This document shows, piece after piece, positions 304-23,715 of a DNA stretch of 48,043 nucleotides. The notes beneath the pieces were generated by a model. It saw only the letters and a list, made by a program, of their open reading frames with translations, did not search any database and was not told the DNA's origin. The translations under genes were made by a program, and so were the position numbers. Location: the sequence record SRR9188676_3046. One strand, given 5' to 3'. The first letter of the stretch is position 1, and each line of letters opens with the position of its first letter.

Positions 304-1440
304 CTAAACATATTCTTTGCTTATCGCTTCCTTGTACTTATTTAGCAGTAAATGTTTTCCGTTTTCTGAGGCTATTTTTAAAACACTAACTTTACACAAA
401 GCATCGATTCTAGCTATTTGGTCATTAGCTGAATTTATCTTTCCTAATTCATCATCAAAACCTGCAATATTTTTTATAGCATTTTTAATGATTGAAGTAA
501 GTTTTTCAAAGTTTTCAAAAGATAGGTCTGAACTACCCAGATAGTTTTCGAGTCTTGCTCCTTTTCTATAAATTGGATAATTTTCTAATCCCATGAATGC
601 CAACATCCAATCCATATTGTAATAACCAATAGTCTTAGTAATTCCTACATAATCTGCAATTAGTTCGTCGTGAAGGTTATTAGACGCACTGCCATATTTT
701 TTTAGCGTAAATAGATGTGTACACTCATGTTCAAGTCTGATTGAATAGGAATATAACTTCCATTCAGATTCAGATATTGCTAAACTACTAGCAGAAACGT
801 TACTGTAAGGTTTTGTACTTAAAATGATTATTCTATCTTTAAATAATCCTGAATTTGGTAAGACATTTTTTGCAAATTCCTCATTCCAGTTTTCTAAAAG
901 ATTATTTGCTAACCAATCTTGTTTCAAAGAATGTAATCTATCCCAATTATTAATTCCATTAATTAGTATTGCCCCCATTGAGTTAGGAATAGAGATTGGG
1001 TTATTCTTGTATAAAAGGCTTTGAACGATTTGTTTAAAATCCTGATTGTTAGGAACTTTTATGACTGGAATTTTACCCGCTATACTTTCAAAAATATTAA
1101 TTTCAATTCCTTCTGGGTCAATGAGATTTAGTGTACTCTTCCTTTTGACCGTAGCATTTTTCCCTTTCAATACTGTATCAACGTAATCCTCTGTTTTGTT
1201 TATTCCTTCTTCTATAGGGAAATTTAATTGAGGATAACACATTTTCAAAATGGAAAAAGCATTTCCACCAACAGAATCTGTTGCATAACCTTCCCACGAA
1301 CTAATATATGGCTCGTCGATAAATAAGGACTGAGGTTGTGCTTTTGGGGAAGAAAACTTATTCTGAAAATACAATTCCAGTTCTTTAGATAAATCGTCGC
1401 CTTCTTCTTTTAATGCCAAACTTGATAAAGTAGTTTCCAT
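304..1440 (-). CDS. Uncharacterised HExxH protein (DUF7005-like) at the end of the NHLP export operon; possible metalloenzyme
   Basis: 378-aa ORF starting 3 nt after the ABC transporter stop; RLEHECTH motif followed by NNLHDELIADY; family name is from recall. Confidence 0.65.
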   Translation of the reverse strand: METTLSSLALKEEGDDLSKELELYFQNKFSSPKAQPQSLFIDEPYISSWEGYATDSVGGNAFSILKMCYPQLNFPIEEGINKTEDYVDTVLKGKNATVKRKSTLNLIDPEGIEINIFESIAGKIPVIKVPNNQDFKQIVQSLLYKNNPISIPNSMGAILINGINNWDRLHSLKQDWLANNLLENWNEEFAKNVLPNSGLFKDRIIILSTKPYSNVSASSLAISESEWKLYSYSIRLEHECTHLFTLKKYGSASNNLHDELIADYVGITKTIGYYNMDWMLAFMGLENYPIYRKGARLENYLGSSDLSFENFEKLTSIIKNAIKNIAGFDDELGKINSANDQIARIDALCKVSVLKIASENGKHLLLNKYKEAISKEYV

Positions 1441-1443
1441 TGA

Positions 1444-4356
1444 TTAAGCAATTTGGCGTTTGGCAAGTTGTGCAAAAAGAGCATCATTTTCCATTAATTC
1501 ATCATACGTACCCGCTTCAACGATAGTTCCTTTATCCATCACATAAATACGGTCAGCATTCTTGATGGTACTTAGTCTGTGAGCTATTATGATTCGGGTT
1601 GCTTGAAGTTTATCTAAACTTTGAGAAACAATATTTTGTGTTCTGTTGTCTAATGCACTAGTTGCTTCATCCATAAACAGTAACCTTGGCTTATGTACAA
1701 TTGCCCTTGCAATCATCAATCGTTGTCTTTGTCCACCCGAAAATGTGCCTGCTCCTTCACTAACCACGGTGTGCATTTCCATTGGCATTTGCTTGATATC
1801 ATCTTCCATTCCTGCCATACGTGCAGCTTCCCAAGCATCATCTAATGTCAATTCGGAATTTCCCACGATATTTTGATAAATACTTCCTGACATTAATGCA
1901 CCATTTTGTAAAACAACGCCGATTTGTCTTCGTACTAATTCTTTATTCATTGATTCAAAAGAATCTGTATCATAATAAATAGAACCTGCTTCGGCTTGTT
2001 CAAAGCCTAAAAGTAATCTCATAATCGTAGATTTACCTGAACCTGAGGCTCCTACGAAGGCAACCATTTCGCCTGGTTTAACTTTGAAAGTAACGTTATT
2101 TAATACCAGTGGAAGGTCTTCTTTGTATCTAAAAGAAATGGAGTTCATTTCTATTTCTCCTGCTAATTCACCAGGGTCTATACTTTGTTCGGCAGATTCT
2201 GTTTCTTCTTCCAAAATTGGCTTTACTCTTTCATACAATGTAATTACATTCAGAGACGTAATTAGAGCCATACTTAGTCTTAAACTATCATTCAAAAATT
2301 TGTTAAAAGCACTAATAAAAGCCAAAAAAGCTCCTACTGAAAGCATACTTACAGCTCCAGTCGAATTTAATATGGTATAATATAAGAATGAGAAAAAGAA
2401 GATGCTGGTTAAAAGTGGGTAAGACGCATTGAATGTTTCTACAAAATTTTGATACATTCCTGAGTTAAATCCAAGTTTCTTTAAGTTTGAAAACTTATCT
2501 GCCCAAAGTGTGAAAACTCTACTTTCTCCTCCTGTTATTCTTATTTTAGTAATTCCTGATAGAAACTCAAATAAAAATCCTTGTATTTCACCTTGATACT
2601 TAGATACTTGTCGATCATATTTTAATTTTAGTAATCCAATGCAAACTATAAAAGCGGCTGCAATTGCACCTAAGAGTACACCAACCCAAGCCAACTTGGC
2701 ATCATAATAAAAAAGTAATATCAAATTGACAAAAGAGAAAGCTCCACTCAATACCGCTGTCATTAAAGTATTTGAAACAATTTGACGAATAGCATTAATA
2801 CTTAATACTCTATTGGTAAGGTCGCCAGCAGAGAATTTTTTATAAAAAGTCACAGGTAATCTTAGCATGTGATCCATTACACCCGCTTGCAAATTAATAC
2901 TTGACTTTGATTCAACCCTTAATTGTAGGACTCCTTGAGCAAGCTGTAAACCTGCAGATACGAATCCTATCATAATCATAATAGCAAAAACTTCCGTGTG
3001 AAGAGATTTATCAGCAGTTGGAATAACATCATCATACATCAATCCAGATAGCATTGGTATCAATAAACCAATTAAAGTTCCTACGAATGCTGCAAGTATC
3101 AATATTTTTGAATCTTTCTCTACTCCCTTGATGGCAAAAGTAACTACTTTTTTGATTGAAGTCATTTTGCTATCAAATCCAGCAAAGAACATATTGCCAA
3201 TCGGTTCTAAAGTATCTGCAACTTCATTATCAATGACTAACTCTTCGCCACTTGACAAATTTTTCATTACATAACTTGTAGAAGTTTTTTGTATTAATGC
3301 TACTGGAGTTTTGTCTTTTTTGGTAAAAGCCAATAAATGTCCGTTTTCTTCTTTCCACCAAGTTCCTCGCAGAATAACTTTACGAATTCTTATTTTCGAG
3401 CTCTTTGCAATGGCATATAATTGATTGTTAGTACTATTTTGGTAGAATTCTATATACTTGGGCTCTTCCAAATCAAAGCCAATCTGATTTCCAATTAATT
3501 GACAGGTTGCAAAAAGAACACTTTGTTTATTTGAATTTTGATAAACAGCAGATGGACACTTTTCATCATTACCTACTACGATAGATTTTATTTTTTCTAA
3601 AGTAGTTTTTAGTCCTTGCGCTTCATTAATAAGTTTATCTTGGAAACGATTACTTTCTTCTGTTCTTTGGTTTTCAATAATTTTATTAAGTTGAGTATAG
3701 AAATACCCTTCTAGTTTGCTCAATGAAAGTAGAAAATATATTTCGTCTTCAATGAGTACCTCTCTAGTACTTAACACTCTCACTTCTGTAGCATTGGTAA
3801 GAGACTTTATCCATAATTTATTTGAAACAGGTGCAAGAAAATCAGGATATTGCGCTGAGCTGATAGGGGTACTTTCAGAAAAAACGTCAATTTCACCCTT
3901 TAGCAGGTGAATCCAATTGATGCCACTTGAAGGGAAAGCAACCGTATTTTTTTCTAAAGTAGTTATTTTAAAATCATCAAGTGCTGTGTAAATTCTTGGA
4001 GTATTATTAGTATTTAAAATGGTAGATGTTTTAGTAATCCATTTATTAATCATATTCTTTAAAAAGAAGGGATCAACATCAAGTAGATTATTTTTGTCAA
4101 TTGCTAATAAAGTAGCTTCATTTGATGAAATGATAAGCCTTGTATTATCAGTATGCTCAGGAGCCAATAAACTAAATAATATTTCTCCTTTCTGTGCGGT
4201 GTACAAGTGTCTTAAAGCAATTAAATACTCTCCATTTTCACCAATTTTAGTATAAAAAACATTTACTTCACCCGAAAGCACCAGCCAAAATCTATCCGTA
4301 TCGTTCAGAATAAAGGGATTTTCAACTCCGATATATATTTTTTCATTTACAGACAT
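1444..4356 (-). CDS. NHLP bacteriocin-system ABC transporter permease/ATPase subunit with N-terminal cNMP-binding-like region and no active C39 peptidase
   Basis: Walker A GASGSGKST, signature FSGGQRQR, Walker B LFMDEATSALD, AHRL; TM domain; N-terminal FWLVLSGEVNVF...GEILF resembles a cNMP barrel. Confidence 0.92.
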   Translation of the reverse strand: MSVNEKIYIGVENPFILNDTDRFWLVLSGEVNVFYTKIGENGEYLIALRHLYTAQKGEILFSLLAPEHTDNTRLIISSNEATLLAIDKNNLLDVDPFFLKNMINKWITKTSTILNTNNTPRIYTALDDFKITTLEKNTVAFPSSGINWIHLLKGEIDVFSESTPISSAQYPDFLAPVSNKLWIKSLTNATEVRVLSTREVLIEDEIYFLLSLSKLEGYFYTQLNKIIENQRTEESNRFQDKLINEAQGLKTTLEKIKSIVVGNDEKCPSAVYQNSNKQSVLFATCQLIGNQIGFDLEEPKYIEFYQNSTNNQLYAIAKSSKIRIRKVILRGTWWKEENGHLLAFTKKDKTPVALIQKTSTSYVMKNLSSGEELVIDNEVADTLEPIGNMFFAGFDSKMTSIKKVVTFAIKGVEKDSKILILAAFVGTLIGLLIPMLSGLMYDDVIPTADKSLHTEVFAIMIMIGFVSAGLQLAQGVLQLRVESKSSINLQAGVMDHMLRLPVTFYKKFSAGDLTNRVLSINAIRQIVSNTLMTAVLSGAFSFVNLILLFYYDAKLAWVGVLLGAIAAAFIVCIGLLKLKYDRQVSKYQGEIQGFLFEFLSGITKIRITGGESRVFTLWADKFSNLKKLGFNSGMYQNFVETFNASYPLLTSIFFFSFLYYTILNSTGAVSMLSVGAFLAFISAFNKFLNDSLRLSMALITSLNVITLYERVKPILEEETESAEQSIDPGELAGEIEMNSISFRYKEDLPLVLNNVTFKVKPGEMVAFVGASGSGKSTIMRLLLGFEQAEAGSIYYDTDSFESMNKELVRRQIGVVLQNGALMSGSIYQNIVGNSELTLDDAWEAARMAGMEDDIKQMPMEMHTVVSEGAGTFSGGQRQRLMIARAIVHKPRLLFMDEATSALDNRTQNIVSQSLDKLQATRIIIAHRLSTIKNADRIYVMDKGTIVEAGTYDELMENDALFAQLAKRQIA

Positions 4357-4483
4357 GAGAGTAAATTTTATTAGTCCTTGATTTAAGTAATGAATACAAT
4401 TTAAGCGACGTTTTGTGTTTATGTAAATAATTGATTATTAGGTGTATGAAGTGCTAATCATTACCTAAGTAGATAATTATATT

Positions 4484-6673
4484 TTATTTTGATTCAATTA
4501 GCTGAGCGTAAACACCATTTTGTTTCATCAGTTCTTGATGAGTTCCTCGCTCTACGATTTTACCGTATTGCATTACGATTATTTCATCACAATCCATAAT
4601 TGTGCTGAGTCTATGAGCAACAATCAAACAGGTACATCCTCTTCTTTTGATATTATCCATCACTAATTTTTCGGCCGTTGGGTCTAAGGCACTTGTAGCT
4701 TCGTCCATAATCAAAATAGACGGATTGGTGGCTAGTGCCCTTGCTATTTCTAAGCGTTGGCGTTGCCCACCGCTAAAATTAGAGCCGCCTTCCATCACCA
4801 TACTATCATAAGCATCTTTTCTGACTGCTATAGTATCATGAATGGCGGCATCACGAGCAGATTGAATAATATTTTTATCCGAAATGGTAGTATCCCAGAA
4901 GGCAATATTTTCTTTAATTGTCCCATTAAAAATTAGTACTTCTTGGTCAATTACTGCCAAAGAATCTGTAATGATATGTCGGGGAATATCGTCTTTGGGT
5001 TTGCCGTCGAACAAAATTTCACCTTTCCACGGTTTATATAATCCCGAAGCTATTTTAGCCACTGTTGACTTGCCACTACCAGAGCCTCCAACCAATGCAA
5101 CCCTACTGCCGGGTTTCAATTTTAAATTAAAACCTTCAACCAAAGCTGGCATCGTGGTATTATATCCAAAGGTTACATCCTTCATCTCGAAATACCCAAT
5201 CAACTTTTGATTGTTGGCAGTATTCAAATTTTTTGCTTGCTGATTATCACCTCTGAATTGGTCATCCACTTCATAATTTATTACATCGTCTATACGACCC
5301 ATGTCACTTTCTGTTTCATTTAACAATGTACCAACAGAAATTAATTGATTAACAGGCGAGATAAAATTCCCCATCAAGTAAGTGAAAGCTACCAACGCTC
5401 CAAGGGTCATCTGTCCATCCATGATTCTCAAAGCCCCTATGCCTAAAATCAAAGTAGTTGTCAACGAAGTAAGCAAAGGAGGAATGGCATTGAACCTAAC
5501 TGATAACCATCCTAATTCTTGTTGTCCATTGGTTACTTTTGCTAAATATCCAATCCAATTAGTAAAGAAATCATTTTCTCTCCCCGACGCTTTCAAGGTC
5601 TCAATCATACTGATTCCAGATGTTGTTATGCCTAATAGTTTGCCCATTTCGTTGCTCAAACGACGATTTCCATCTTTCCTCGCTCTTGATACATATTTAA
5701 TAACACCCACATTAAGCGCTGCCATTAATATCCCAATAAGGGTTAAGGGAACATCATACGAAAACATCAGGATGGCATAAAATATAACAACAATGATATT
5801 CAATGCAGCATTGGCAAGATCCCCACTTAGTAGTTTCGCTACCTTGTCGTTGAGTGATACTCTGTTACCAATTTCACCACTATAACGTTGCGTAAAAAAA
5901 GCTATCGGTAAATGAAAAACATGCCACAGGAACTTACTGGAAGTAGTTAAAGCTAATTTTGTTTCTAGTTTGAGCAAATAATATTGTTGGAGATAAACTA
6001 GTACTGCATTAATAATTAAGGTTACTCCCATAATCAGTAATAGAGGCATTACAAAGCCTGAGTAGCCATTTATCAAGTATTTATCAATAAATATTTGGAT
6101 AAATGAAGGGATAACTAAACCAGGAATGACTAAGAAAAGACTCACTAAAATAATATAGCCGATACTTAATTTTGAATTTGCAATTCTTGAACCCAAGGAT
6201 GCAAGAAGTCCTCTTTTTTCATTTCCTTTTTCAAATGTTGCACTTGGATTAAATGTAAGTACAACTCCAGTATAAGCTTCATCAAACTCTTGATGACTCA
6301 CTTGGTATCTTCCTTGGGCAGGATCACTTAAAAATACTTTATTTTTGGTAAAGCCTTCCAACACTAAAAAGTGGTTAAAATTCCAAAATATAATCGCTGG
6401 TGTCTGGATTTGCATCAGCTTTTCAAGTGATTTCGCATAGCCTTTAGATTCTAAGCCAAATTCTCTAGCTGCTTTGATAATATTGGTAGCTTTTAAGCCA
6501 TCTCTTGAAACTCCACAAGCGATTCTCAGTTTTTCCAAAGGAACGAACTTTCCGAAATATCCTAATATAATGCTCAGTGCGGCAGCACCACACTCCACAC
6601 TTTCCATCTGTAATACTGTAGGAACCTTAACTGGTCTTGCCTGTTTTTCGATAACAAACTTGGTAGTATCCAT
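4484..6673 (-). CDS. NHLP-family peptidase-containing ABC transporter (C39 peptidase/permease/ATPase)
   Basis: LQMESVECGAAAL (catalytic Cys), WNFNHFLV (His), DPAQG; GGSGSGKST, FSGGQRQR, DEATSALD. Confidence 0.95.
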   Translation of the reverse strand: MDTTKFVIEKQARPVKVPTVLQMESVECGAAALSIILGYFGKFVPLEKLRIACGVSRDGLKATNIIKAAREFGLESKGYAKSLEKLMQIQTPAIIFWNFNHFLVLEGFTKNKVFLSDPAQGRYQVSHQEFDEAYTGVVLTFNPSATFEKGNEKRGLLASLGSRIANSKLSIGYIILVSLFLVIPGLVIPSFIQIFIDKYLINGYSGFVMPLLLIMGVTLIINAVLVYLQQYYLLKLETKLALTTSSKFLWHVFHLPIAFFTQRYSGEIGNRVSLNDKVAKLLSGDLANAALNIIVVIFYAILMFSYDVPLTLIGILMAALNVGVIKYVSRARKDGNRRLSNEMGKLLGITTSGISMIETLKASGRENDFFTNWIGYLAKVTNGQQELGWLSVRFNAIPPLLTSLTTTLILGIGALRIMDGQMTLGALVAFTYLMGNFISPVNQLISVGTLLNETESDMGRIDDVINYEVDDQFRGDNQQAKNLNTANNQKLIGYFEMKDVTFGYNTTMPALVEGFNLKLKPGSRVALVGGSGSGKSTVAKIASGLYKPWKGEILFDGKPKDDIPRHIITDSLAVIDQEVLIFNGTIKENIAFWDTTISDKNIIQSARDAAIHDTIAVRKDAYDSMVMEGGSNFSGGQRQRLEIARALATNPSILIMDEATSALDPTAEKLVMDNIKRRGCTCLIVAHRLSTIMDCDEIIVMQYGKIVERGTHQELMKQNGVYAQLIESK

Positions 6674-6690
6674 CTTTTAAAATTTGTTCA

Positions 6691-7953
6691 TTAGTACAGA
6701 TCAAAAAATTTCTTAAATGCAGGTACCACGATTGTAGCAGGCGCTTCCTGTTTTATGGTAATTTTACCCGTGCAAGAAGTACCTTCTTTTATCAAAATAT
6801 CAGGGCCTTTAGCTGAAGTCCACTTGAATCCGCTGTATGATGCAGTATCTTTTTCAAATTCTACGTGAACTTCAAAAAGAGGTCCAGAGGCTAATAAACC
6901 TTTCGCTAATTGGTCATTCTTGACAGAAGTCATCATACCTTGTTGCGTAATGGGGAAGTCAGAAATGTAAGTTACCTTGGCTTTGATAAAACCGTATTCT
7001 TGTGGTTGTACTGTAGATGGAACCACAAAAGCCTCCATGCCTTTTTTAATTTTCTTACCATCTTGCGAAGGAATATAAAGTACACCCTTCAACTTAGTTA
7101 TTTTTTTTTCATGCAAGTTTTTGACTTTGAACAAAGGCGTACCAGCAGCTACCATAACGCCTGCATCTGTTAGCACTTCAACTACTTCACCATCATAAGA
7201 ACTTCTTATATTCGACTGAATATCATATCTTTCAGATACAAACTGAAGATTCCTTTCGGCTTCTGCAATTCGTTGATTTTGCAAAGTAATTTTTTGCTGT
7301 AAATCAAATCCTATATTGAGTTTTCGGCTTGAGGTTTCTGCCATTTGAGATTTTAATCTTTCGATAGTATTCTTGGAAGCATCAATTTGTTGTTTTGTAT
7401 TAGCAACTTGCGATTTTACGATTAATCCTTTTTCAAGTAAATTATTTTCAGATTCTAACTGATTACTCAGAAATGATAGTTTCTTTTTTTCTGACTCGAT
7501 TTCACCTTGAATACTTATTCTATTTTGATTAATTATTTCGCTCTCCAACTGTGTTCCTTGACTACCGTAAGACATTAATTTCCCCATCTCCAATTTCCTG
7601 TCCGACAATACAGCTTTTGCAGATTCTATTTGTTGAATAAGTTCAGGTTGTTGGATTTCAGCGATAATATCGCCTTCCTTTACATTTGTACCTATAGCAA
7701 CACTCAATTTTACGAGTTGACCTTGCGAAGTTGCAACAACCTCATGAACCTCTCCGCCTAAAACTACTCCAACGGCATTGAGTTTTGTTTTTACTCTGCC
7801 CACAACAGCCCAGCCTATACCTGTACTTAATGCCAAGAAAACCGTAAAAAGAGCAATCCAAGCTTTTGGACCAGTCACTTTTATTAATTGGTCTAATTTC
7901 TCTGGTGTCGAAAGTTTTTCCAATGCTGACTTTCTGAAAAATCCTGCTGCCAT
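6691..7953 (-). CDS. NHLP bacteriocin-system secretion protein (HlyD-type membrane fusion protein)
   Basis: FRKSALEKLSTPEKLDQLI N-terminus, one TM helix, coiled coil, PSTVQPQEYG, FKWTS motifs; lies between TolC and the C39-ABC. Confidence 0.93.
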   Translation of the reverse strand: MAAGFFRKSALEKLSTPEKLDQLIKVTGPKAWIALFTVFLALSTGIGWAVVGRVKTKLNAVGVVLGGEVHEVVATSQGQLVKLSVAIGTNVKEGDIIAEIQQPELIQQIESAKAVLSDRKLEMGKLMSYGSQGTQLESEIINQNRISIQGEIESEKKKLSFLSNQLESENNLLEKGLIVKSQVANTKQQIDASKNTIERLKSQMAETSSRKLNIGFDLQQKITLQNQRIAEAERNLQFVSERYDIQSNIRSSYDGEVVEVLTDAGVMVAAGTPLFKVKNLHEKKITKLKGVLYIPSQDGKKIKKGMEAFVVPSTVQPQEYGFIKAKVTYISDFPITQQGMMTSVKNDQLAKGLLASGPLFEVHVEFEKDTASYSGFKWTSAKGPDILIKEGTSCTGKITIKQEAPATIVVPAFKKFFDLY

Positions 7954-7967
7954 AGTTTTATTTTTTA

Positions 7968-9539
7968 TTAATTATCGGTTTGAGGAATACTATAAAATGA
8001 TTTTTGATCTAAAGTAAATCCCTGATTATCTTGTGAAATTAGCGTTCCAGTTTCATGTCTAAGGTTAATGATTGCATTAGCAAATTGTTGGTAAGCCTGT
8101 AAATATTCTAATTGTGATGCCGTTAAGCGTTCTTGGAATAATATCAAATTTAAAAGAGTAGTCAATCCTGTTTGGAATTTCCCTTGTTCGTTGTTGAAAG
8201 CTACTTGGTAATTATTCAATGCCTCTTTTGCCTTTTCAAGTACAAGTACGCTATTATTCAAATTGTTGAGGGCATTGCTAATATTTAATTCTACATTTCT
8301 TTGAAGATTATCATTAATCACTTTTTGGTCATTTAAGGCAACATTAATCTTAGCAAGATTACCTTTTGCTAAATTATTATTTACAGGAAATGTAAAGCTC
8401 AGTTTAGCTCCAACGCTCATATTTCTACCTTGATTACTTGTGAGAGAAGAGAAGGTTTCGCTAATACCATTACCCATACTTGCACTTCCGTAAGAAGCCA
8501 ATGCCGTTAAATCTAATTGTGGTGTTGTATTATTGGCTGCCAATTTAGCTTGCATTTCTAATGCTTCATATACTTTCTTGAGTGCCTTCAGGTCTGCTCT
8601 TTTTCCTTTTGCAAGTTTAATGAAAGTGTTTTTATCTAAATCTTTCCTATACTCTGACTGAGAAATTGTTGGAAACTCATTTTCAGGAATATCCAACAAC
8701 AGACTTTCTTCGTTACTAAGTCCGATTGCTCCCCCTAAATTAAGCCTTGCTGTATATAAGTTCTGTTCAGCCAAAATCGTTAGTTTTTCCTGATTAGCTA
8801 AATCTGCATTTACCTGTACTATATCTCCCGCTGGTTTTTTGTCGGCCTTTATTAACTCATTTGTGATTTCTAAAACATTTCTAACCCTACTTTCATTCTG
8901 TTTATAAATTTCTACATTTTTAAATGCAGTAAAATAATTCCAGTAAGCAAAGCCTATCTGCAAGATTTCATAAGAATTTGTAAACTCATTATTCTTTTTT
9001 GAGTTCTCTATATAAAGTAGTGATACTCTTTCAGAGACAGTAGTAACCTCACGTCCTCTCCCCCTTAATAATGGTTGTGTTAAAGAAAAATTAATAGTAC
9101 TTGAATGATTTCCCCAATAAGCTCCAACATTTTGATTAAAACTATTGAAGGGGAGATTACTATTATTGAAACCATAATTCAAACTTATATCTGTTGTTTG
9201 CCCTGAACGAAGCTTTTTACGAACACCCGCAGAGAATTCTGAAGTATTTGTTTTTAAAACCTTATCAACAAACTGATTTCTGGTATCTGCATCAAAAAGA
9301 TTGTACCTACTATTTCTAATTAATAATCCTGAATATGAATTAACATCAAATACACTTTTTTGAATCTGAAAATCAGCTCCAGCATCCTGAATGGTATAAG
9401 TACTTCTTTTTAATAAAGGATTTTTATCAAATGCCAGAGATGAGATTCCAATTAAATCACATTTGATTTTTGACTGACCGTATAAGTTGTTGATATAGAC
9501 AACAAATAACAATATGTAAATACATTTACAAAACCTCAT
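7968..9539 (-). CDS. TolC-family outer-membrane efflux protein
   Basis: Signal peptide; SLTQPLLRG, AYWN, PQLDL, GLTTLLNL motifs of OEP repeats; operon context. Confidence 0.9.
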   Translation of the reverse strand: MRFCKCIYILLFVVYINNLYGQSKIKCDLIGISSLAFDKNPLLKRSTYTIQDAGADFQIQKSVFDVNSYSGLLIRNSRYNLFDADTRNQFVDKVLKTNTSEFSAGVRKKLRSGQTTDISLNYGFNNSNLPFNSFNQNVGAYWGNHSSTINFSLTQPLLRGRGREVTTVSERVSLLYIENSKKNNEFTNSYEILQIGFAYWNYFTAFKNVEIYKQNESRVRNVLEITNELIKADKKPAGDIVQVNADLANQEKLTILAEQNLYTARLNLGGAIGLSNEESLLLDIPENEFPTISQSEYRKDLDKNTFIKLAKGKRADLKALKKVYEALEMQAKLAANNTTPQLDLTALASYGSASMGNGISETFSSLTSNQGRNMSVGAKLSFTFPVNNNLAKGNLAKINVALNDQKVINDNLQRNVELNISNALNNLNNSVLVLEKAKEALNNYQVAFNNEQGKFQTGLTTLLNLILFQERLTASQLEYLQAYQQFANAIINLRHETGTLISQDNQGFTLDQKSFYSIPQTDN

Positions 9540-9563: not shown

Positions 9564-10079
9564 TTATACTTCAGAAAATCTATGCAGTATTTGCCCAAAT
9601 CTGGCTCCAGCTTGTGCTACACCATCCAACACATTAATATCTATTAAATCTTCTTCTTCTGGATTTCCATATCCTAACTGATCTGTGGTCTTTCTTAATC
9701 TATTTGATAGAAACAAAGCCAAAGCATAATAGAAATTTGCTCTAAATTCCATATTAGTTACAAATCTAGCTGTTATCATTTCACGAGAAATTTGATAGAC
9801 AACCGTTGGCTGAGTAACGATAACTGAAACAGAAGGTGGTCTGGATTCAAGGAATGACATCTCTCCTACTATTTCACCAGCTTCGAGTTTGGCAACTGTT
9901 TCATTATTGTTGGTACATACTGCCAACTGACCAGACAAAACTATGTACAAACTATCAACAGACTCTCCTTTATTGATGAGTCTATCGCCTGTTTCCAGTG
10001 TTAATTTGCTACCATTGGTAATCATCCACTCAACATCTCTGTCATTTAATTGACCTAAGAAAAAAAGGACTCTTTTCAT
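9564..10079 (-). CDS. Stand-alone cyclic nucleotide-binding domain protein (bacteriocin-transport-associated type)
   Basis: LINKGESVDSLYIVLSGQL...GEIVGEMSFL cNMP fold motifs; no C-terminal HTH; first gene before tolC. Confidence 0.88.
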   Translation of the reverse strand: MKRVLFFLGQLNDRDVEWMITNGSKLTLETGDRLINKGESVDSLYIVLSGQLAVCTNNNETVAKLEAGEIVGEMSFLESRPPSVSVIVTQPTVVYQISREMITARFVTNMEFRANFYYALALFLSNRLRKTTDQLGYGNPEEEDLIDINVLDGVAQAGARFGQILHRFSEV

Positions 10080-10215
10080 AATTATCTTGTTTTAAAGTAA
10101 TACACTAATTTATGCTGTTAAAGCTTGACAATTAAGCCAAAATGTATGTCATTACTGCCATTGAAAGCTTTTGATAAGGTAATAGTTTTGAGTTCAGTCT
10201 GCATAGAATAGACGA

Positions 10216-10872
10216 TTAACGCAGCGTTTTAATAAGGTCTTTAGGCGAAACATTGTATTGGTACATAAACAGCGTTGAAAAATAATGAACATCATTATAT
10301 CCAACGGAATAGGCAATCTGTGAAATAGAATTTTGGATATAATTATCAATCATCTGCTTTGCTTTGTGTAATCGTAGTATCCTTATATATTTATTAGGTG
10401 TTAAACAGACTAAATTCGCAATTTTTCTATGCAACTGTCTTTCGCTAACTGCCATTTTAAACGCTAAATCGTAGAGACTGAGGTAATCTTTGGTGATACA
10501 GCCATAAATCTCTTTTTCAAGGCTCATGAGCCATTCCTGATCCATTTTTGTTATTTTTTGAGGTTTTATCTCATCTGAACACATTGCTCGGACATTTTGA
10601 TTTTCCTCATAAATTTCAAAAATTTCTGGACGACCCTGAAAAGTGACATTGAGGGATTTAGATTTAGCTTTTCGCATTATTTCTTCTACGATGTCACTAA
10701 TTTCTTTGCTACTCGAAAAGATGATTTCATCAACAATATTTTTATGCTCCATCGAACTATTTTGACTCGCACTAATAATGTTTTCTAATGGGTTTTTGAT
10801 ATTCTGAACAATTTGTTCCAAAACATCTGGAGAAGACCAATCGATAGCTATGTTTTTTCTTGTGTCCATCAT
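10216..10872 (-). CDS. AraC-family transcriptional regulator with short N-terminal extension
   Basis: LAFKMAVSERQLHRKI...TPNKYIRILRLHKAKQMI...ISQIAYSVGYNDVHYFSTLF double HTH. Confidence 0.9.
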   Translation of the reverse strand: MMDTRKNIAIDWSSPDVLEQIVQNIKNPLENIISASQNSSMEHKNIVDEIIFSSSKEISDIVEEIMRKAKSKSLNVTFQGRPEIFEIYEENQNVRAMCSDEIKPQKITKMDQEWLMSLEKEIYGCITKDYLSLYDLAFKMAVSERQLHRKIANLVCLTPNKYIRILRLHKAKQMIDNYIQNSISQIAYSVGYNDVHYFSTLFMYQYNVSPKDLIKTLR

Positions 10873-11685: not shown

Positions 11686-12256
11686 CCTAGTATTTATTTG
11701 TATCTTTCAGAGATTAATTCATATTTTGATGCTACTTCTGCATTGATGTTGAATGTAAGCAACCAACTTGGTTTACTTCTATTACTGCTTATTACTGCTC
11801 TTTTGTTTCTTTGCCCTCAAAGACTTGAATAAAAGTATTTTAAGTGCCTGTATTAATAAAATTTATTATGCGAAAGTGCCAAAACATTATGTGAAACTTG
11901 ATTTTTGCCTGGATATAACAAATTTGGTTTTAAAGGACTTCGCTGAATATTTAAATAAATACACAACTTTAATGAAAACTAATAAATATGACTTTATAAT
12001 AGACTTGTAGTTTATATCAAATATCACTAATTGTGAACCCCGTTGTCTTTATGGTGTCAAAATTTGTAAAAGTTTTTTGGTGTGCGTATTTTTTTGATAT
12101 TTGTCCGTTGAATTGAGCCACTGTGCTTTTCATTAACAATAATTTTGTTGAATTTTTCATAGTTAAATTGATTTAGTTTATTTACTGAATCAAAATTAAC
12201 GGGCAGTAATGCTGTACAAAAAAATATTATGTGAACACTTTAAAATATTATGTGAA

Positions 12257-13339: not shown

Positions 13340-13571
13340 ACAAAAAAGCTTATTAGTTATTACTCAATCAGATGGTTTACATATTAGATTTAATTATTGA
13401 TAAATCAACAATTAAATAGTTAAGTGCTTTAAATTGATGTTTAATATTAAAAATTTCACTTTCTCTATTAAAATAAGAACATAAAATACTAATTTTAAAT
13501 AAAATAAAAAATACTAAACCGCCATCCAATCCATTTAACGCTTGATTTTCCACCTTTAATGCCAACATAAA

Positions 13572-15106: not shown

Positions 15107-16642
15107 TTAAATATTTACCCAACGTGTAATATACATTAACTGTTCTTTTTTATGTTCAAGAGAAAATAGGTCTAATCTATGATAGATATTTTCTATACAA
15201 TTGTGTTCAAATATTTTTAAGGAGTCATTCCCTTCCAAAAAATTATCTTCACTTTTCAAGTTGAAAATGGGTATGTCTCCATTAAGCATTTGTTTCATTT
15301 CATAATCAAGAATAAACCTATATTTTTCCATATTTTCTCCTTGAAAAGCTTTCGATAATAAATAGCGTAGCTTTGAGTTATATTCGTCAAAATTTGACAT
15401 GAAAGATGCTGCTCTCATATACTTTAAAATTTTGAAATATATAAAGGTTGGTCGCCAAACATAGCGAACTTCATTATTTTGAAATAATTGTAATAAGAAA
15501 TTATTAGATGTTAATTCCTTTTTTGAATTTAAAATAATATCGTAGGTAGAAGAAAACCCATCAATGAAATACTCTTTGTAATCACTTACCAAAATGTACT
15601 TCCCCTGAAATACAGGAATATTTTTAGCTATTATTTCTTTTGTAGCAAAACGAGTCATCCTCTTAGAATTTATGGTATTGGGATTTACCACGATTGTCTG
15701 TAACTCTGTTACATCGACATACCCATTTACTCCGTAGCCAACATTGTGTAATGGTGCTCCTGTATCGGGATTAACAATCAAAACATTTTCTAATACTGAA
15801 AAAGGAGGAATTTTGAACTGATCATCCCATGAACGAAAAGATTTATCGTTAAAGAATGGCTGAATAATAGTTTCGTGATCAATTATGACAGGATTTTTAT
15901 TTGATGCAATTAAATTCTCACGATGACAATCTCTGCTACCCAAAAGTAAGGTAACAGCTAATAACATCCCAGCTTTGTAGTAGTATTCTCCTAAATCCTG
16001 TTCTAAGGCAACTTCTTCGTAATGTACAAATTCTATCCAGCCATAACTACCACAATCCAACACTTTAAAAGTTTTTAGGTCTGTCTTTAATTTGCAATTA
16101 ATCCAATCAATGAAAGAATTATATGAATTAGTTATTTTTATATTTCTCGGTTTGTATATCAGCTTTGTTCCATCTGACAAATACACTAAGGAAGTGCCCT
16201 CGCCATTGTGTCCATCACCGAGACTTACGTCAATATCTACAATCTTGATGTCTCTTAGGTTGAATATAGATGCTATATTTTCAAAATCTTCTTGAAAATG
16301 AGAAATAATATTATGAATATGATTTGAAAAATTAGTGGTCTTTATCTTTAGAATTTTATCTAAAACAGGATAATCAGATGCTAATGATAAGACCATTTTT
16401 TCTGTAAATTCATCATAGTTTATGTTCCCTTTTTCAATAAAATTATCTAATTCCGACTGTAATGTAACTTCTGCCGAATAACTCAAATCTTCTAATAATA
16501 GCGCCTCTAATTTATTTTTTAGATGAGATGATAAGTCCAAGAAAGAATTATTTGTAAAACTTTCAGTATAGGATAAAAGAATTTCAACAAACGGAATTGT
16601 TTTGAAATTATCCTTTATTAAATATGGGGCTTGATTCGTCAT
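15107..16642 (-). CDS. Stand-alone LanM-type dehydratase domain protein (DUF4135), no cyclase domain
   Basis: GDGH, LIYKPR, YGWIEFV, DCHRENL, IIDHET, VRYVWRPTFIY, GDIPIF; ends at 511 aa. Confidence 0.88.
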   Translation of the reverse strand: MTNQAPYLIKDNFKTIPFVEILLSYTESFTNNSFLDLSSHLKNKLEALLLEDLSYSAEVTLQSELDNFIEKGNINYDEFTEKMVLSLASDYPVLDKILKIKTTNFSNHIHNIISHFQEDFENIASIFNLRDIKIVDIDVSLGDGHNGEGTSLVYLSDGTKLIYKPRNIKITNSYNSFIDWINCKLKTDLKTFKVLDCGSYGWIEFVHYEEVALEQDLGEYYYKAGMLLAVTLLLGSRDCHRENLIASNKNPVIIDHETIIQPFFNDKSFRSWDDQFKIPPFSVLENVLIVNPDTGAPLHNVGYGVNGYVDVTELQTIVVNPNTINSKRMTRFATKEIIAKNIPVFQGKYILVSDYKEYFIDGFSSTYDIILNSKKELTSNNFLLQLFQNNEVRYVWRPTFIYFKILKYMRAASFMSNFDEYNSKLRYLLSKAFQGENMEKYRFILDYEMKQMLNGDIPIFNLKSEDNFLEGNDSLKIFEHNCIENIYHRLDLFSLEHKKEQLMYITRWVNI

Positions 16643-18497: not shown

Positions 18498-18758
18498 TTA
18501 GTTTGAATTTCTACTTTTTAACTCTTTATCTATAGAACTGACTTGACTATAAACTAGAATCAAAAGGGGTAAAAGTGCAAATGGAACAGCAAGTAAAGGT
18601 GTAACCCCTTTATTGATTGTCTGAAATATAGTGATAATAAGTAGTACCGTTAAAGCTCCTACAAATAAACCAAAAGCGAAAGAAGTAGATTTTTTCTTTT
18701 TGATTAAATCTTCTGTTCCCATGTCGCTAAAATTGTCTTTTTTGAGTTCCATTTTCAT
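18498..18758 (-). CDS. Small membrane protein with two hydrophobic segments
   Basis: 86-aa ORF with plausible topology (basic stretch, two TM segments, IDKELKSR tail). Confidence 0.7.
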   Translation of the reverse strand: MKMELKKDNFSDMGTEDLIKKKKSTSFAFGLFVGALTVLLIITIFQTINKGVTPLLAVPFALLPLLILVYSQVSSIDKELKSRNSN

Positions 18759-19791: not shown

Positions 19792-20160
19792 TTAACGAGT
19801 TGGAAACGTAGTGAGAGGTTTTAGAATTTCTTCAATTGGATTGCTAAAAGGACCTCCTGTTGTGCATCCACCACCATCTATTCCTTCCCAAACTCCTCCA
19901 GCCACAAGTTCCAATTGTTCCTCATTCAGCTCCACATCAGCAGTATTTTTTGGTTGGGCTGGGATATTGATATAAACTGTAGAATCATCAGTTTGATCTC
20001 TCACTACCAAGGTTTTACCTGTTGGTAGATTCAATTTATTACCCGTTAATTTCTCAATAGTTGCTACTGGGTTTGCCACCAATTCATTTTTGAATTCAGG
20101 GCTTTCCCATGCTTTTTGCACGATTTCAGCGTACGTTTTTTGTTCTTGTGTGAATTCCAT
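19792..20160 (-). CDS. NHLP-leader RiPP precursor P3; predicted core VWEGIDGGGCTTGGPFSNPIEEILKPLTTFPTR
   Basis: KAWESPEFKNELVANP...ELNEEQLELVAGG leader. Confidence 0.93.
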   Translation of the reverse strand: MEFTQEQKTYAEIVQKAWESPEFKNELVANPVATIEKLTGNKLNLPTGKTLVVRDQTDDSTVYINIPAQPKNTADVELNEEQLELVAGGVWEGIDGGGCTTGGPFSNPIEEILKPLTTFPTR

Positions 20161-20877: not shown

Positions 20878-20935
20878 GTAAAATTAGGAGAGTATTTACT
20901 GATAAATTTGCCAAAAAAACCTACAAAACAGCCAA
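20878..20935 (-). promoter_or_regulatory. Putative promoter/operator copy A upstream of the precursor array
   Basis: + strand gtaaaatta-N14-gataaa-N2-tgccaa-N5-cc-N2-caaaa-N-agccaa; minus-strand TAATTTTAC resembles the Bacteroidota -7 element; same spacing in two other copies. Confidence 0.6.
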
Positions 20936-21085: not shown

Positions 21086-21143
21086 GTAAAAGTAGAGCAG
21101 ATTTTCTTGATGAAATTGCCAAATATTCCGTCAAAAAAGACAA
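21086..21143 (-). promoter_or_regulatory. Putative promoter/operator copy C, 208 bp upstream of copy A
   Basis: gtaaaagta-N14-gatgaa-N2-tgccaa-N5-cc-N2-caaaa-N-agacaa. Confidence 0.55.
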
Positions 21144-21159
21144 TGGATAATAAACAAAA

Positions 21160-21189
21160 ACAGATACCTTCGATGATGAAGGTATCTGT
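21160..21189 (-). terminator. Intrinsic terminator downstream of the cyclase gene
   Basis: acagataccttc-N6-gaaggtatctgt followed by a U-rich tract on the minus strand. Confidence 0.75.
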
Positions 21190-21324
21190 CAAATAAAATA
21201 TAAATTAGATTTATATGAAGCCAAAATTCTGCTCAAAATGAAGCGGTATTTATAGCGTATCCCACTAAGTATTTTTCAAACTTCATGAGACAATCTTTAC
21301 TAAGCCTGTCAAAGATTTTTAGTG

Positions 21325-23325
21325 TTAAAATGTATTATTTTCTGTAACTAAGACACTGTTAGCATCCTCAAGTGTATAGTCGTTTCTTTCTACAAAATAC
21401 ATGGCAATTTCTCCCTTGCCTTTCGCTATTATATTTCCTCTATATTCAAAGGTAAAACATTCTTCATCCTTAATTAGGTGATATAACGACTCGCTGATGT
21501 TTACTTTCCCTACCATTCCGTTGCTTTCTATTCTGCTGGCAGTATTTACAGTATCACCCCAAACATCGTACTGAAATTTCTTAACACCAACAATTCCCGC
21601 TACGATTGGTCCTACGTGTATGCCCAGACGCATCTCGAAGAAAGGCTTCTGATACTGCTTATTTTCAATGGCTCTTTGAATTACAAAGGCTTGCATGTCT
21701 AAACCAGCCAACACAATGTTTTTTAATGAATTTTCATCAGGATGTGGAATACCTCCTGCTGCCATATAGGCATCTCCGATAGTCTTTATTTTTTCAATTT
21801 TGTACTTTTCTGAAATCAAATCAAATGCTTTAAAACATACATTTATTTCTTCGACCAAAAGATGAGGAGTCATTTTTTCTGCCGTTTGTGTAAAGGATTT
21901 GAAATCTGTAAAAAGTATTGAGACCAAACTAAAGTCTCGGGCATTCACACTCCCTTTTTGCTTTAATTCTTCTGCTATTTCTGCTGGAAGTATATTCAGT
22001 AATAATGCTTCAGAACGATTTTTTTCAATACCTAAAGCCTTTTTTGACTTTCTTACAAAATTTAAGCTACTCCATAAGCCAACAGCAACAACAAGGGTAA
22101 AACATAGCGAAGCGATAATGATATTTCTTTGCTTTTCCTTTTTTTGTATCTCTTCCTTATGTTTTTGTTCGATGATATTTTGTTTCTTCACATACACAAT
22201 ACTATCCATCAATTGCTGTTTTTGGAATTCCATATTCATCATCCTGTTGGAAGCTTCTTCAGCCTTTAAACTATCTTTAAAAGCATTTGATTTTTCATAA
22301 TATTGAAGCGCTAGCGTACTATTTTCTAAAGATTTATATGATTTATACAAGCATTCACAGGCATCTTTTTTTTCAGAAATTGCTCCCAATTTTTCAGCCA
22401 ATTTTAATCCAGTGCTACATTTTTCAATTGCTTTGTTGTCCTTCTTTAATTGATGGAATATATTACCAATGGCAATCTGAGACACACTTTTATATCGCAG
22501 ATTATCAATTTCTTTGGCATATTGGAAACAAAGATTGTAATAATATTGAGCCTTTTGAAAATCTGATTGTTTGTAAAATAACTCTCCTAAATTTGATAGT
22601 ACTTCTAATTCTAACTGTTTGTCTTTTTCTTCAACTGCAATTTTTAATGATTGATTAAAATCCTCGAAGGCTTTATCAAAATCCCCTTTTTCCATAGAAA
22701 TATATCCTATTTCAATGAGCATTTTGGCAATGCCTTTTCTATCATTAATGCTTTTGAAGATAGCATAGGCTTTATTGATATACCTCATAGCATTCGTATA
22801 GTCTTTTACTTTAGAATAAATAGCTCCAATATTCTCGGTAATGGTTGCTACATTTTTTCTATTGCCTATTTCTTCTTGAATAACAATTGCCTGTCTATAA
22901 TATTCTACTGCTTTGAGGTAATTTCCAAGACTGTAATATATAACTCCGATATTGTTAAGAATATCTGCTATTCCTTTTTTATTTTTTGCTTTTATTTGCC
23001 ATCCTAAACTTTCTTTAAAAAAAAATAAAGTTTTAAAATAATCACCTCTAAAATAATATATTGTCCCAATGCTATTGAAGCAGTCTCCTATTTTTTGATT
23101 CTCCTTAATGCTTTGATAAATGTTCAAACTATTTTCATAAAGGGCTAAAGCCTTTTTTGAGTTTCCTATTTCATCATACTTTGAACCAAGAGCATAAAGA
23201 CTATCCGCTATTACTTTAGATTTTGAGATTTTATTGATTTTCACAGATTGTTGTCCATACCCTTTCTCCTCTATTGCAATGAATAGAATTATTAGGAATA
23301 AAAAATATGCACAGTAGTTTTTCAT
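21325..23325 (-). CDS. Membrane class III adenylyl cyclase with extracytoplasmic TPR sensor domain
   Basis: Signal peptide, multiple TPRs, TM helix (IIIASLCFTLVVAVGLW), LLLNILP helical linker, ILFTDFKSFT, EKIKTIGDAYM, YDVWGDTVNTASRIES; the K and D specificity residues indicate ATP. Confidence 0.92.
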   Translation of the reverse strand: MKNYCAYFLFLIILFIAIEEKGYGQQSVKINKISKSKVIADSLYALGSKYDEIGNSKKALALYENSLNIYQSIKENQKIGDCFNSIGTIYYFRGDYFKTLFFFKESLGWQIKAKNKKGIADILNNIGVIYYSLGNYLKAVEYYRQAIVIQEEIGNRKNVATITENIGAIYSKVKDYTNAMRYINKAYAIFKSINDRKGIAKMLIEIGYISMEKGDFDKAFEDFNQSLKIAVEEKDKQLELEVLSNLGELFYKQSDFQKAQYYYNLCFQYAKEIDNLRYKSVSQIAIGNIFHQLKKDNKAIEKCSTGLKLAEKLGAISEKKDACECLYKSYKSLENSTLALQYYEKSNAFKDSLKAEEASNRMMNMEFQKQQLMDSIVYVKKQNIIEQKHKEEIQKKEKQRNIIIASLCFTLVVAVGLWSSLNFVRKSKKALGIEKNRSEALLLNILPAEIAEELKQKGSVNARDFSLVSILFTDFKSFTQTAEKMTPHLLVEEINVCFKAFDLISEKYKIEKIKTIGDAYMAAGGIPHPDENSLKNIVLAGLDMQAFVIQRAIENKQYQKPFFEMRLGIHVGPIVAGIVGVKKFQYDVWGDTVNTASRIESNGMVGKVNISESLYHLIKDEECFTFEYRGNIIAKGKGEIAMYFVERNDYTLEDANSVLVTENNTF

Positions 23326-23359
23326 TGATTTAAAAATTTCGGTTACTCAAATATCTAAA

Positions 23360-23388
23360 AACGCATATATTCATAGAACATATGCGTT
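23360..23388 (-). terminator. Intrinsic terminator/attenuator between the mini-precursor and the cyclase gene
   Basis: aacgcatatattc-ata-gaacatatgcgtt; one G-U pair and a U-tract on the minus strand. Confidence 0.7.
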
Positions 23389-23416
23389 TAACCCAAAATC
23401 ATTTCAAACCAAAATC

Positions 23417-23617
23417 TCATCCTCCTGTCTTAATAAGCACACCTTCACCTCCCCCCGATATAATATCCAACTGCTCTTCATTCAGCTCTACATCATCTAC
23501 TATAATAGACTTTTCCTGAGAGTTGTTTAAAGAGCTCACATTCTCTTTTTTTTCAGCATCAGAGAACTTTTTCTCTTCGGGAGAATTTGAATTTTTAGGG
23601 TCGTTCGTTAATTCCAT
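23417..23617 (-). CDS. Miniature double-glycine-leader peptide precursor P6; predicted core GEGVLIKTGG
   Basis: DDVELNEEQLDIISGG matches the leader C-terminus of the five NHLP precursors; has its own promoter motif and terminator. Confidence 0.75.
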   Translation of the reverse strand: MELTNDPKNSNSPEEKKFSDAEKKENVSSLNNSQEKSIIVDDVELNEEQLDIISGGGEGVLIKTGG

Positions 23618-23663
23618 GGCTTGTAATTATTAGTTTAAAATATATCTTTTTAAAAAGCACATC

Positions 23664-23715
23664 GTAAAATTATCATGATTTATTACGATAAAACTGACAA
23701 TTACACCGATAAAAA
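23664..23715 (-). promoter_or_regulatory. Putative promoter/operator copy B upstream of mini-precursor P6
   Basis: gtaaaatta-N14-gataaa-N2-tgacaa-N5-cc-N2-taaaa, same spacing as copies A and C. Confidence 0.6.

Follow-up and report, generated by a model that had tools for sequence, protein, structure and literature searches.

The peptide gene P6 and the adjoining TPR-cyclase

The window analysed here, a stretch of 48,043 nucleotides from sequence record SRR9188676_3046, carries an array of NHLP precursor genes together with genes for their export. Within it a short open reading frame (ORF) that we call P6 (23417..23617, minus strand) stands in front of a gene for a 666-residue protein combining tetratricopeptide repeats (TPR) with a class III cyclase domain (21325..23325, minus strand). 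P6 encodes 66 residues, MELTND...VELNEEQLDIISGG followed by GEGVLIKTGG. Residues 1-56 (23450..23617, minus strand) are a degenerate remnant of an NHLP leader, with VELNEEQLDIISGG as its C-terminal end, and residues 57-66 (23420..23449, minus strand) form the core, which is closed by a stop codon at 23417-23419. This reading of the ORF confirms an earlier note on the same DNA, which had described a double-glycine leader end and the 10-residue core GEGVLIKTGG. The gene is preceded by a promoter/operator region (23664..23714, minus strand), and a terminator-like hairpin (~23357..23389, minus strand) separates it from the cyclase gene.

The end of the leader can be read as ...V-E-L(-12)-N-E-E-Q-L(-7)-D-I-I(-4)-S-G-G, which agrees with the pattern recognised by C39 peptidases of ATP-binding cassette (ABC) transporters with a peptidase domain (PCAT), namely Gly-Gly at -2/-1 and hydrophobic residues at -4, -7 and -12 (PMC6363468). 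At position -8 P6 has Gln rather than Glu, as in the leaders of the array precursors. As the earlier note had proposed, P6 lacks the NHLP fold: no match at E <= 0.1 was found to TIGR03793, the NHLP leader model (a nitrile-hydratase-like domain of about 77 residues, with a cut-off of 50.9 bits), whereas the five array precursors P1-P5 reach 51.4-61.7 bits, and no Pfam family matched P6. The claim that its leader end is nearly identical to that of P3 held in part. The 18-mers at 23478-23495 (P6) and 19922-19939 (P3 leader end) are present and differ at one base, with no matches expected from shuffled sequences, but the P6 leader end is not specially P3-like and instead carries a signature of its own family, LDxxSGG (see below). 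The N-terminal half of P6 is of low complexity and fast-evolving, and the leader codons of the window and of A. rosea differ by ten amino-acid changes against five differences that are synonymous only. In the nearest genome (G001) the P6-type gene is present in a single copy.

The protein encoded downstream of P6 has a hydrophobic signal segment (residues 1-19), a TPR region (~25-395; TPR_12, 120 bits), one transmembrane helix (~399-424) and a class III cyclase domain (462-646; PF00211, 177 bits). Since there is a single transmembrane helix and the catalytic domain is cytoplasmic, the TPR region should, judging from hydropathy, face the periplasm, and its invariant or near-invariant cysteines (Cys82, 303, 323 and 325) would fit an oxidising compartment. 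The nearest solved relatives of the catalytic domain are adenylate cyclases, which also give the best alignment; when aligned to AC8/AC9, the segments FTD, IKTIGDAYM and YDVWGDTVNTASR match the conserved blocks of class III cyclases, and the domain has a Lys/Asp pair, which we take to indicate specificity for ATP. For the TPR domain, the nearest solved structures include those of LGN/Pins, kinesin light chains, OGT and Rap proteins (Rap, E ~2e-12), in which peptides are bound in the TPR groove.

A family of small precursors upstream of orthologous cyclases

A full-length orthologue of the cyclase (59-100% identity) was found in 6 of 61 relatives of the nearest genome, and in all six a P6-like ORF lies directly upstream. 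A phylum-wide scan was then made with one genome per species and the alignment of the TPR domain as query, retrieving 40 loci, 38 of them with at least 43% identity; the closest to the window are from Arcicella (99% and 94%). One of the 38 (L057) comes without upstream DNA and was left out. An intact double-glycine-leader ORF on the same strand lies just upstream of the cyclase in 30 of the 37 evaluable loci, from both Cytophagia and Flavobacteriia, and in one more (L037) the proximal copy of the peptide gene has an in-frame stop. At paralogous TPR-protein/cyclase loci such an ORF was found in none of 14. The search for similar small ORFs that the earlier note had suggested was thus successful, and, as shown below, their cores co-vary with the TPR domain. 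That P6 is a real and conserved feature is in our view practically certain.

The remaining six cyclases have no adjacent peptide gene (Runella L025, L027, L028 and L033; Hymenobacter L035 and L042), and no NHLP precursor was found anywhere in the surrounding DNA examined at these loci. The two Hymenobacter proteins share 26 of 27 (L035) and 24 of 27 (L042) predicted groove positions with the cyclase of H. rigui, whose peptide core is VDGGLILKP, and they may be 'solo' receptors.

The family has 31 members when the distal L037 copy is counted. Full-length NHLP precursors of 97-113 residues make up 16 of them (Chryseobacterium, Flavobacterium, H. rigui and one metagenome-assembled genome (MAG)), and the other 15 are short, with 57-66 residues, and have lost the NHLP helical core (alignment A5). 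The full leader is retained in Flavobacteriia, the helical core is deleted in Spirosomataceae, and Hymenobacter glaciei shows an intermediate deletion. P6, which lacks the helical core, nevertheless descends from full-length orthologues, so that the term 'orphan' given to it in the earlier note no longer applies: it is the Arcicella member of the family, a miniaturised orthologue of precursors whose NHLP leader is still complete in Chryseobacterium and Flavobacterium.

The leader end is the most constant part of the family. The signature LDxxSGG occurs in 29 of 31 members, while the array precursors mostly have LExxAGG, and the double glycine is invariant in a 24-row alignment. All 31 cores have an acidic residue within their first five positions, 30 have Lys or Arg, and usually a hydrophobic triplet precedes the basic residue (GEGVLIKTGG, GDGGFIIKG, VDGGLILKP, ..GDPPIYIKP..). 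No core contains Cys, and seven have neither Ser, Thr nor Cys. The cores are 8-11 residues long, except in Flavobacteriia, where they have 19-25.

Leader codons of L040 and of one L037 copy (L037a) differ at ten positions, all synonymous, and those of L024 and L029 at seven synonymous positions with one amino-acid change; in the 23 core codons of L048 and L052 we found four synonymous-only differences and no replacement. These codon comparisons show purifying selection on the peptide. In five loci the peptide ORF overlaps or abuts the start of the cyclase gene (gap of -4 to 14 nt). On the Spirosomataceae MAG contig L037 (419-4938) peptide and cyclase genes occur in tandem, in the order peptide, cyclase, peptide, cyclase. 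The second peptide gene has its in-frame stop within ELNE*QLD, and in the cyclase that follows, the Asn125 that is invariant elsewhere is replaced by Gly; coming from a single MAG, this is only a hint that the peptide core and the TPR domain are partners.

Co-variation of the peptide core with the TPR domain

The clearest case of joint change is the pair L024/L029, with the cores ADLSQYKP and GDIPGLAKGS. Identity between their sequences, about 95% in the flanking DNA, is 92-97% in the promoter and leader, drops to 35-70% (78% in a single window) over the core codons, the intergenic region and some 300 TPR codons, rises again to mostly 82-97% over the transmembrane and cyclase part (single windows of 78% and, at the 3' end, ~70%), and reaches 82-98% in P1. 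At the protein level the leader is 98% identical, the core 20%, the TPR domain 61% and the cyclase domain 97%. The pattern of a hypervariable cassette is repeated, more weakly, in L034/L055, and in L043/L044 it holds for TPR versus cyclase only. Conversely, in every pair with TPR domains at least 93% identical the cores are at least 78% identical. P1, on the other flank of the cyclase gene, does not co-vary with the TPR domain; as a candidate TPR ligand it was ruled out, being 82-98% identical where the TPR domain is replaced.

The structure of the complex was predicted for TPR residues 24-395 with P6 residues 37-66, together with three controls. The median score was 0.67 and that of the best control 0.01. 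Of solved complexes 51 of 78 attain the mark, as do 2 of 108 mismatched pairs and 7 of 44 neighbouring gene pairs drawn blindly; the method was run without family alignments and is unproven on peptides and disordered chains. Contacts agreed between runs by at least 75%, and the confidence (pLDDT) of the partner was at least 56. On the peptide side the predicted contacts involve residues 56-65 only, that is the core, without the amphipathic leader helix. On the TPR side they line the concave face of the first repeats, where G80, G118, N124, N125 and N165 are invariant and D81 nearly so. The modelling proposed in the earlier note thus places the core, and not the leader, in the TPR groove.

The 27 TPR positions of this predicted interface were compared with the rest of the domain (two-sided Fisher tests). 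Where the cores are the same or very similar, the interface is identical at 27 of 27 positions in four pairs, with the rest of the TPR domain at 94% in the window and A. rosea (p = 0.38), 94% in L043/L058 (p = 0.39), 79% in L045/L048 (p = 0.004) and 84% in L048/L051 (p = 0.02). Among pairs with different cores, the interface falls to 44% in L024/L029 (rest of TPR 62%, p = 0.10) and to 41% in L024/L026 (rest 64%, p = 0.02), and shows no excess divergence in L034/L055 (63% against 57%, p = 0.69) and L043/L044 (70% against 65%, p = 0.68). Across 29 loci, distances between cores are correlated with distances at the interface both when the cyclase domain is controlled for (partial Mantel r = 0.64) and when the whole TPR domain is (r = 0.42), with 0 of 2000 permutations as high in either case, although the figures are inflated by relatedness and by the many Chryseobacterium rows. 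By these comparisons the divergence of the core tracks that of the predicted binding surface, and it is probable that the peptide and the adjoining cyclase's TPR domain are linked in function.

Promoter and hairpin

The promoter/operator of P6 consists of direct repeats (TTTTATCGG, 5 nt, TTGTCAG, TTTTATCG), followed after 14 nt by a TAATTTTAC box at 23664-23672. The same architecture is found in front of P1 and the array (20878..20928, minus strand), where units of the types TTTTGACAG, TTTGGCAA and ATTCATCAG precede the same TAAnTTTAC box. A composite pattern was derived from these two upstream regions, both of which it matches by construction, and it has a third, independent match at 21086..21136 (minus strand), where 0.02-0.04 matches are expected by chance. 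The promoter motif that the earlier note had seen as common to P6 and the array is therefore upheld. The third copy, which is followed by no ORF in the stretch down to 20928, lies just past the terminator of the cyclase gene (21159-21190) and ~210 nt ahead of the P1 promoter; it may drive a small RNA or be a remnant of a duplication. Two tandem promoter copies also precede P1 in L023, L024, L026 and L029, with a short hairpin after the first of them in L026.

In the displayed loci of Chryseobacterium, Flavobacterium, Spirosoma, Nibrella and Rudanella, the region upstream of the peptide gene contains TTTTGTCAG-like units, two or three in number and spaced ~11 nt apart, with TAAnTTTAC or a variant behind them, and the Arcicella promoter is a diverged version of this layout. 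It was not seen in 4 of the 19 orthologous upstream regions displayed (L032, L036, L038 and L054). The common layout at the peptide gene and P1 argues for a single regulon, in which autoinduction would be possible. As to the protein that binds the operator, our guess is the conserved AraC-type protein described below.

The hairpin that follows P6 has a 14-bp stem, a 3-nt loop and a U-run. The 105 nt around it fold with a minimum free energy of -28.9 kcal/mol (z = -5.5), and none of 200 shuffled sequences was equally stable, which bears out the terminator that had been assigned to P6; a consensus terminator scan did not list it because its stem has too few G-C pairs for the rule applied. A homologous hairpin is present in 22 aligned loci, in which 8 of 13 pairs show two-sided changes that preserve pairing. 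It is missing in 8 of 31 loci, namely the five in which the ORF overlaps or abuts the cyclase start and three others, all of which keep the ORF. The hairpin sequence is itself conserved across the two classes, with the consensus AAACGTATATATTC ... GAATATATACGTTT, and those mismatches that were looked at, in L021, L022 and the GTG-bearing Chryseobacterium loci, turn out to be G-U pairs in the sense strand. Judged from the alignment, this conservation exceeds the need of a plain terminator.

The surrounding gene cluster

Downstream of the cyclase gene lie the five NHLP precursors P1-P5 (19020..20859, minus strand; TIGR03793). P1 (20527..20859, minus strand) has a core that is conserved in both classes (GQxIWxDLVxxLFPxLKDxIKI-like), and wherever a downstream precursor was found (L021-L058) the first gene past the cyclase is of the P1 type. 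The P3-, P4- and P5-like core families are also conserved across genera. Array cores have 15-35 residues, compared with the Cys-free 8-11 of the upstream peptides.

The export genes (304..9539, minus strand) encode a TolC-like protein, HlyD (TIGR03794), the C39 peptidase transporter ABC1 (TIGR03796), ABC2 (TIGR03797) and a DUF7005 protein, and the NHLP export set is complete and above the curated cut-offs. ABC1 (4484-6673, minus strand) reaches 1057 bits with TIGR03796 (cut-off 853) and 133 bits with Peptidase_C39, as expected of the cognate transporter. The DUF7005 gene (304-1440, minus strand), the last of the export operon, is 51-66% identical in four clusters, and its product, with an HExxH-like HECTH motif, could be a metalloprotease that trims exported peptides. 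Next to the export genes are a 171-residue protein binding cyclic nucleoside monophosphates (cNMP; 9564-10079, minus strand; TIGR03896-like, PF00027) and a 218-residue AraC-type helix-turn-helix (HTH) protein (10216-10872, minus strand; HTH_18). Both are 61-80% identical in the clusters of Arcicella, Rudanella, Flavobacterium and Hymenobacter and form a putative downstream signalling pair (9564..10872).

Larger regions were compared for Arcicella sp. LKC2W, Rudanella, Flavobacterium limicola and Hymenobacter rigui, and 3-kb flanks for Chryseobacterium. The conserved core of the cluster comprises the peptide, the cyclase, P1, the NHLP array, the AraC-type and cNMP-binding proteins, the TolC-like protein, HlyD, ABC1, ABC2 and DUF7005. 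Tailoring genes downstream of the cyclase, for a JmjC-type oxygenase and a LanM N-terminal (DUF4135-only) protein, vary between clusters, whereas the peptide is kept in all. In the window the LanM-like protein (511 residues; 15107-16642, minus strand) has only the N-terminal DUF4135 (dehydratase/kinase-like) part, and a 244-residue ORF (10951-11685, minus strand) has a sub-threshold LanC-like match (18.3 bits, cut-off 23.2); the two may be parts of a lanthionine synthetase that has been split or reduced. Inside the cluster, on the opposite strand, lie genes for a LytS-type histidine kinase and a LytTR regulator (12209-14285, plus strand). Among the cluster regions compared, close counterparts occur only in Arcicella sp. 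LKC2W (71% and 83% identity); none was found in the F. limicola and H. rigui regions, and the Rudanella region has only a paralogue nearby, at 28-34%.

An 86-residue protein (18498-18758, minus strand) gave only weak, membrane-protein-like matches and is a candidate immunity or accessory protein. Relatives with 36-37% identity immediately precede the peptide gene in H. glaciei and Rudanella (L038, 2511-2750; L055, 2044-2277).

The tailoring genes bear on the proposal, made in the earlier note, that P6 bypasses them. In its favour, these genes change from cluster to cluster and the peptide stays, and none of the 31 cores contains Cys, so that the combination of Cys with Ser or Thr required of a class II lanthipeptide is absent throughout; with no Cys, and with seven cores lacking Ser, Thr and Cys altogether, lanthionine chemistry is excluded for them. 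An NHLP-specific LanM required its own NHLP leader, according to the excerpt of PMC12537861, and C39 protease still accepted N-terminally truncated leaders (PMC6363468, likewise in excerpt). The missing NHLP domain is by itself no proof, since the A. rosea array and two MAG arrays contain precursors in which a short leader is joined to a core with Cys. P3-like precursors of L022, L024 and L029, with Cys-containing cores (VIDGSNGGCIPTFPW...), have 32-residue leaders without the NHLP domain, and this domain must therefore have been lost more than once in these clusters. An exported, unmodified peptide would be the simplest reading.

A proposed signalling function

Taken together, we favour, with some reserve, the view that P6 is the precursor of a short and probably unmodified signal peptide whose receptor would be the adjoining TPR-adenylate cyclase, as the gene arrangement, the co-variation and the model suggest. 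Judging from motifs and gene content, the 56-residue leader would be cut at the double glycine and the core exported by the C39 ABC exporter (ABC1/ABC2-HlyD-TolC-like). Transporters of double-glycine leaders are known to export both quorum-signalling and antimicrobial peptides (PMC6363468, in the part cited). The active product would be GEGVLIKTGG or a trimmed form of it, and in the periplasm it would sit in the concave TPR groove, a topology predicted from hydropathy and a binding mode backed by the co-variation and the controlled model. Binding may then alter, in either direction, the activity of the cytoplasmic class III (adenylate-like) cyclase domain. The cyclic AMP (cAMP) formed could act on the 171-residue cNMP-binding protein, on the adjoining AraC-type regulator and/or on the exporter, as the conserved gene content would allow. 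Given the conserved motif that they have in common, the direct-repeat operators at P6 and P1 may be the target of these regulators, by which the peptide and the bacteriocin-like array would be autoinduced. The hairpin past P6 would presumably keep the ratio of peptide to receptor transcripts high. Core and groove would diversify jointly, giving rise to strain specificity groups resembling pherotypes. This complete quorum-sensing circuit, with P6 as an exported pheromone that controls the cluster through cAMP, we put forward only tentatively, its chances being in our judgement a little short of even.

Several points weigh against this interpretation. Six of the 37 cyclases have no adjacent peptide gene, and the Flavobacteriia cores are about twice as long as the others. 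Core and TPR codons are neighbours, so that one recombination event could exchange the two even if they had no link in function; homologous recombination would in any case favour a break at the conserved leader end. Interface divergence is not in excess in L034/L055 and L043/L044, the Mantel correlations are inflated as stated, and the complex prediction carries the reservations given with its score. A tripartite exporter normally delivers beyond the outer membrane, and a peptide of ~1 kDa must somehow re-enter the periplasm. Finally, in the cyanobacterial exporter HetC the cNMP-like domain bound ppGpp and not cAMP (PMC10986499, in excerpt), so that the cAMP targets proposed here are not assured.

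Some of these points also support a different explanation, in which the family encodes a further exported product, such as a small bacteriocin, a helper or an immunity-related peptide, whose place at the head of the operon is conserved, the TPR-cyclase senses something else, such as the envelope state or a molecule from a competitor, and core and TPR domain change jointly only because, as neighbours, they were exchanged in the same recombination events. The co-replacement is explicable by adjacency alone, two pairs lack interface enrichment, a peptide is absent next to 6 of 37 cyclases, and the P1-, P3-, P4- and P5-like array cores are conserved across genera as well. We nevertheless consider it unlikely: the Cys-free cores of 8-11 residues are unlike the 15-35-residue array cores, core distance tracks the interface even with the whole TPR domain controlled (r = 0.42), the interface stays at 27 of 27 where cores match and the rest of the domain has drifted to 79-85%, in the model it is the core that occupies the groove, and not the leader (controls, 0.01), and on one MAG contig the pair is repeated in tandem as a unit.

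The peptide might instead signal through the LytS kinase and LytTR regulator of the cluster, in the manner of Gram-positive three-component systems, with the cyclase as a separate input. The presence of this pair in the window, its conservation in Arcicella sp. LKC2W and the direct repeats ahead of the P6 and P1 promoters would suit such a role, which is made improbable by the lack of a close pair in the F. limicola and H. rigui regions and the distant paralogue in Rudanella, where peptide, cyclase and operator are all conserved, and by the location of the pair on the opposite strand. Even harder to sustain is a cis-acting function, in which P6 would be an upstream ORF or attenuator tuning the cyclase together with the hairpin, its product being irrelevant. 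Such a role would account for the hairpin with compensatory changes between ORF and cyclase in 22 loci and for the overlapping or abutting ORFs in five, but the hairpin is missing from 8 of 31 loci that retain the ORF, and a cis-acting ORF would need neither the invariant GG export motif (LDxxSGG in 29 of 31) nor selection on the core, which within specificity groups shows four or five synonymous-only differences and no replacement in 23 codons. That P6 is a decaying, functionless NHLP pseudogene, as the failed NHLP model and the low-complexity, fast-evolving N-terminal half might suggest and as the earlier note had allowed in the form of a decayed duplicate, is contradicted by the ORF, intact in 30 of 37 loci of two classes and under purifying selection with several pairs diverging at synonymous sites only, and by the conserved leader end, promoter and hairpin.

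Should the signal-peptide interpretation be correct, it would introduce a new receptor architecture, in which a TPR domain outside the cytoplasm is coupled to a class III cyclase, would link peptide signalling to cAMP, and would give a reason for the cNMP-binding proteins in NHLP export systems. The peptide-less cyclases with the same groove in two Hymenobacter species would then be eavesdropping receptors. P6 offers a testable ligand for one of the TPR-cyclases, a very large class most of whose members have no known ligand, and the cores ADLSQYKP and GDIPGLAKGS provide natural specificity variants on near-identical backgrounds for dissecting recognition. The peptide could also become a handle for activating silent clusters of bacteriocins or of peptides made by ribosomes and modified after translation (RiPPs) in environmental Bacteroidota.

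Comparison with known systems

Peptide pheromones with dedicated receptors are a hallmark of Firmicutes, and diderm bacteria signal mostly by small lipophilic molecules; to our knowledge no peptide quorum sensing is known in Bacteroidota. It is conceivable, with the odds slightly against it, that the locus represents such a system, made up of an NHLP-derived pheromone, a periplasmic TPR-cyclase, cAMP, an autoinduced peptide and multi-bacteriocin array, and a swappable cassette of core and groove. No description of it was found in the titles and abstract openings of the literature on NHLP with cyclases or Bacteroidetes, on cNMP-binding ABC transporters, or on TPR- or cyclase-based peptide quorum sensing. 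The export part corresponds to the known NHLP export system, with the same exporter families (TIGR03794/03796/03797) and the cNMP-binding accessory protein TIGR03896. In the paper that defines the NHLP family (PMC2887384) the terms 'cyclic nucleotide', 'TPR' and 'Bacteroidetes' are absent and 'cyclase' occurs in the reference list only, so that neither a source of the nucleotide signal nor a dedicated signal peptide is described in it. HetC of Nostoc, a peptidase ABC exporter with a cNMP domain that is thought to export a signalling peptide (PMC10986499, in excerpt), sets a precedent, in a diderm, for peptide export under nucleotide control, although its domain bound ppGpp and not cAMP.

With the RRNPP receptors (PlcR, NprR, Rap and PrgX), which are TPR proteins holding short unmodified peptides in their groove (PMC5007282, in excerpt), the proposed receptor would share a TPR superhelix predicted to hold an extended peptide of 8-10 residues on its concave face. 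Those receptors are located in the cytoplasm, to which their peptides, secreted by Sec, come back through Opp, and their output is an HTH domain or a phosphatase, whereas here the TPR domain is predicted to be extracytoplasmic, the leader is of the double-glycine type and the output domain is a cyclase.

The hypervariable region of staphylococcal agr and the pherotypes of pneumococci and Bacillus are the closest parallels to the L024/L029 cassette. As in those systems, a contiguous block made up of the mature-peptide codons and the ligand-binding part of the receptor is divergent between otherwise near-identical loci. The PlcR/PapR alleles fall into four pherotypes (PMC2441798, in excerpt). 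In our case the divergence lies between species or MAGs, the proteins and the chemistry are different, and there is no thiolactone.

The overall organisation is best compared with the three-component loci of Firmicutes, for which we take plnA-plnBCD, comCDE, blpC/blpHR and sppIP-sppKR as representative. The sensor of the present locus, a periplasmic TPR domain joined to a class III adenylate cyclase, is unlike their polytopic HPK10 histidine kinases, and the predicted output is cAMP and not phosphorylation of a LytTR regulator, in a diderm Bacteroidota host and with a leader derived from NHLP. In common with them, a small double-glycine peptide gene adjoins the gene of the putative sensor within a multi-peptide, bacteriocin-like locus, the C39 ABC transporter of the locus itself would serve as exporter, a repeat operator is common to the peptide and bacteriocin promoters, and the peptide co-varies with the input domain of the sensor, here between species and MAGs only.

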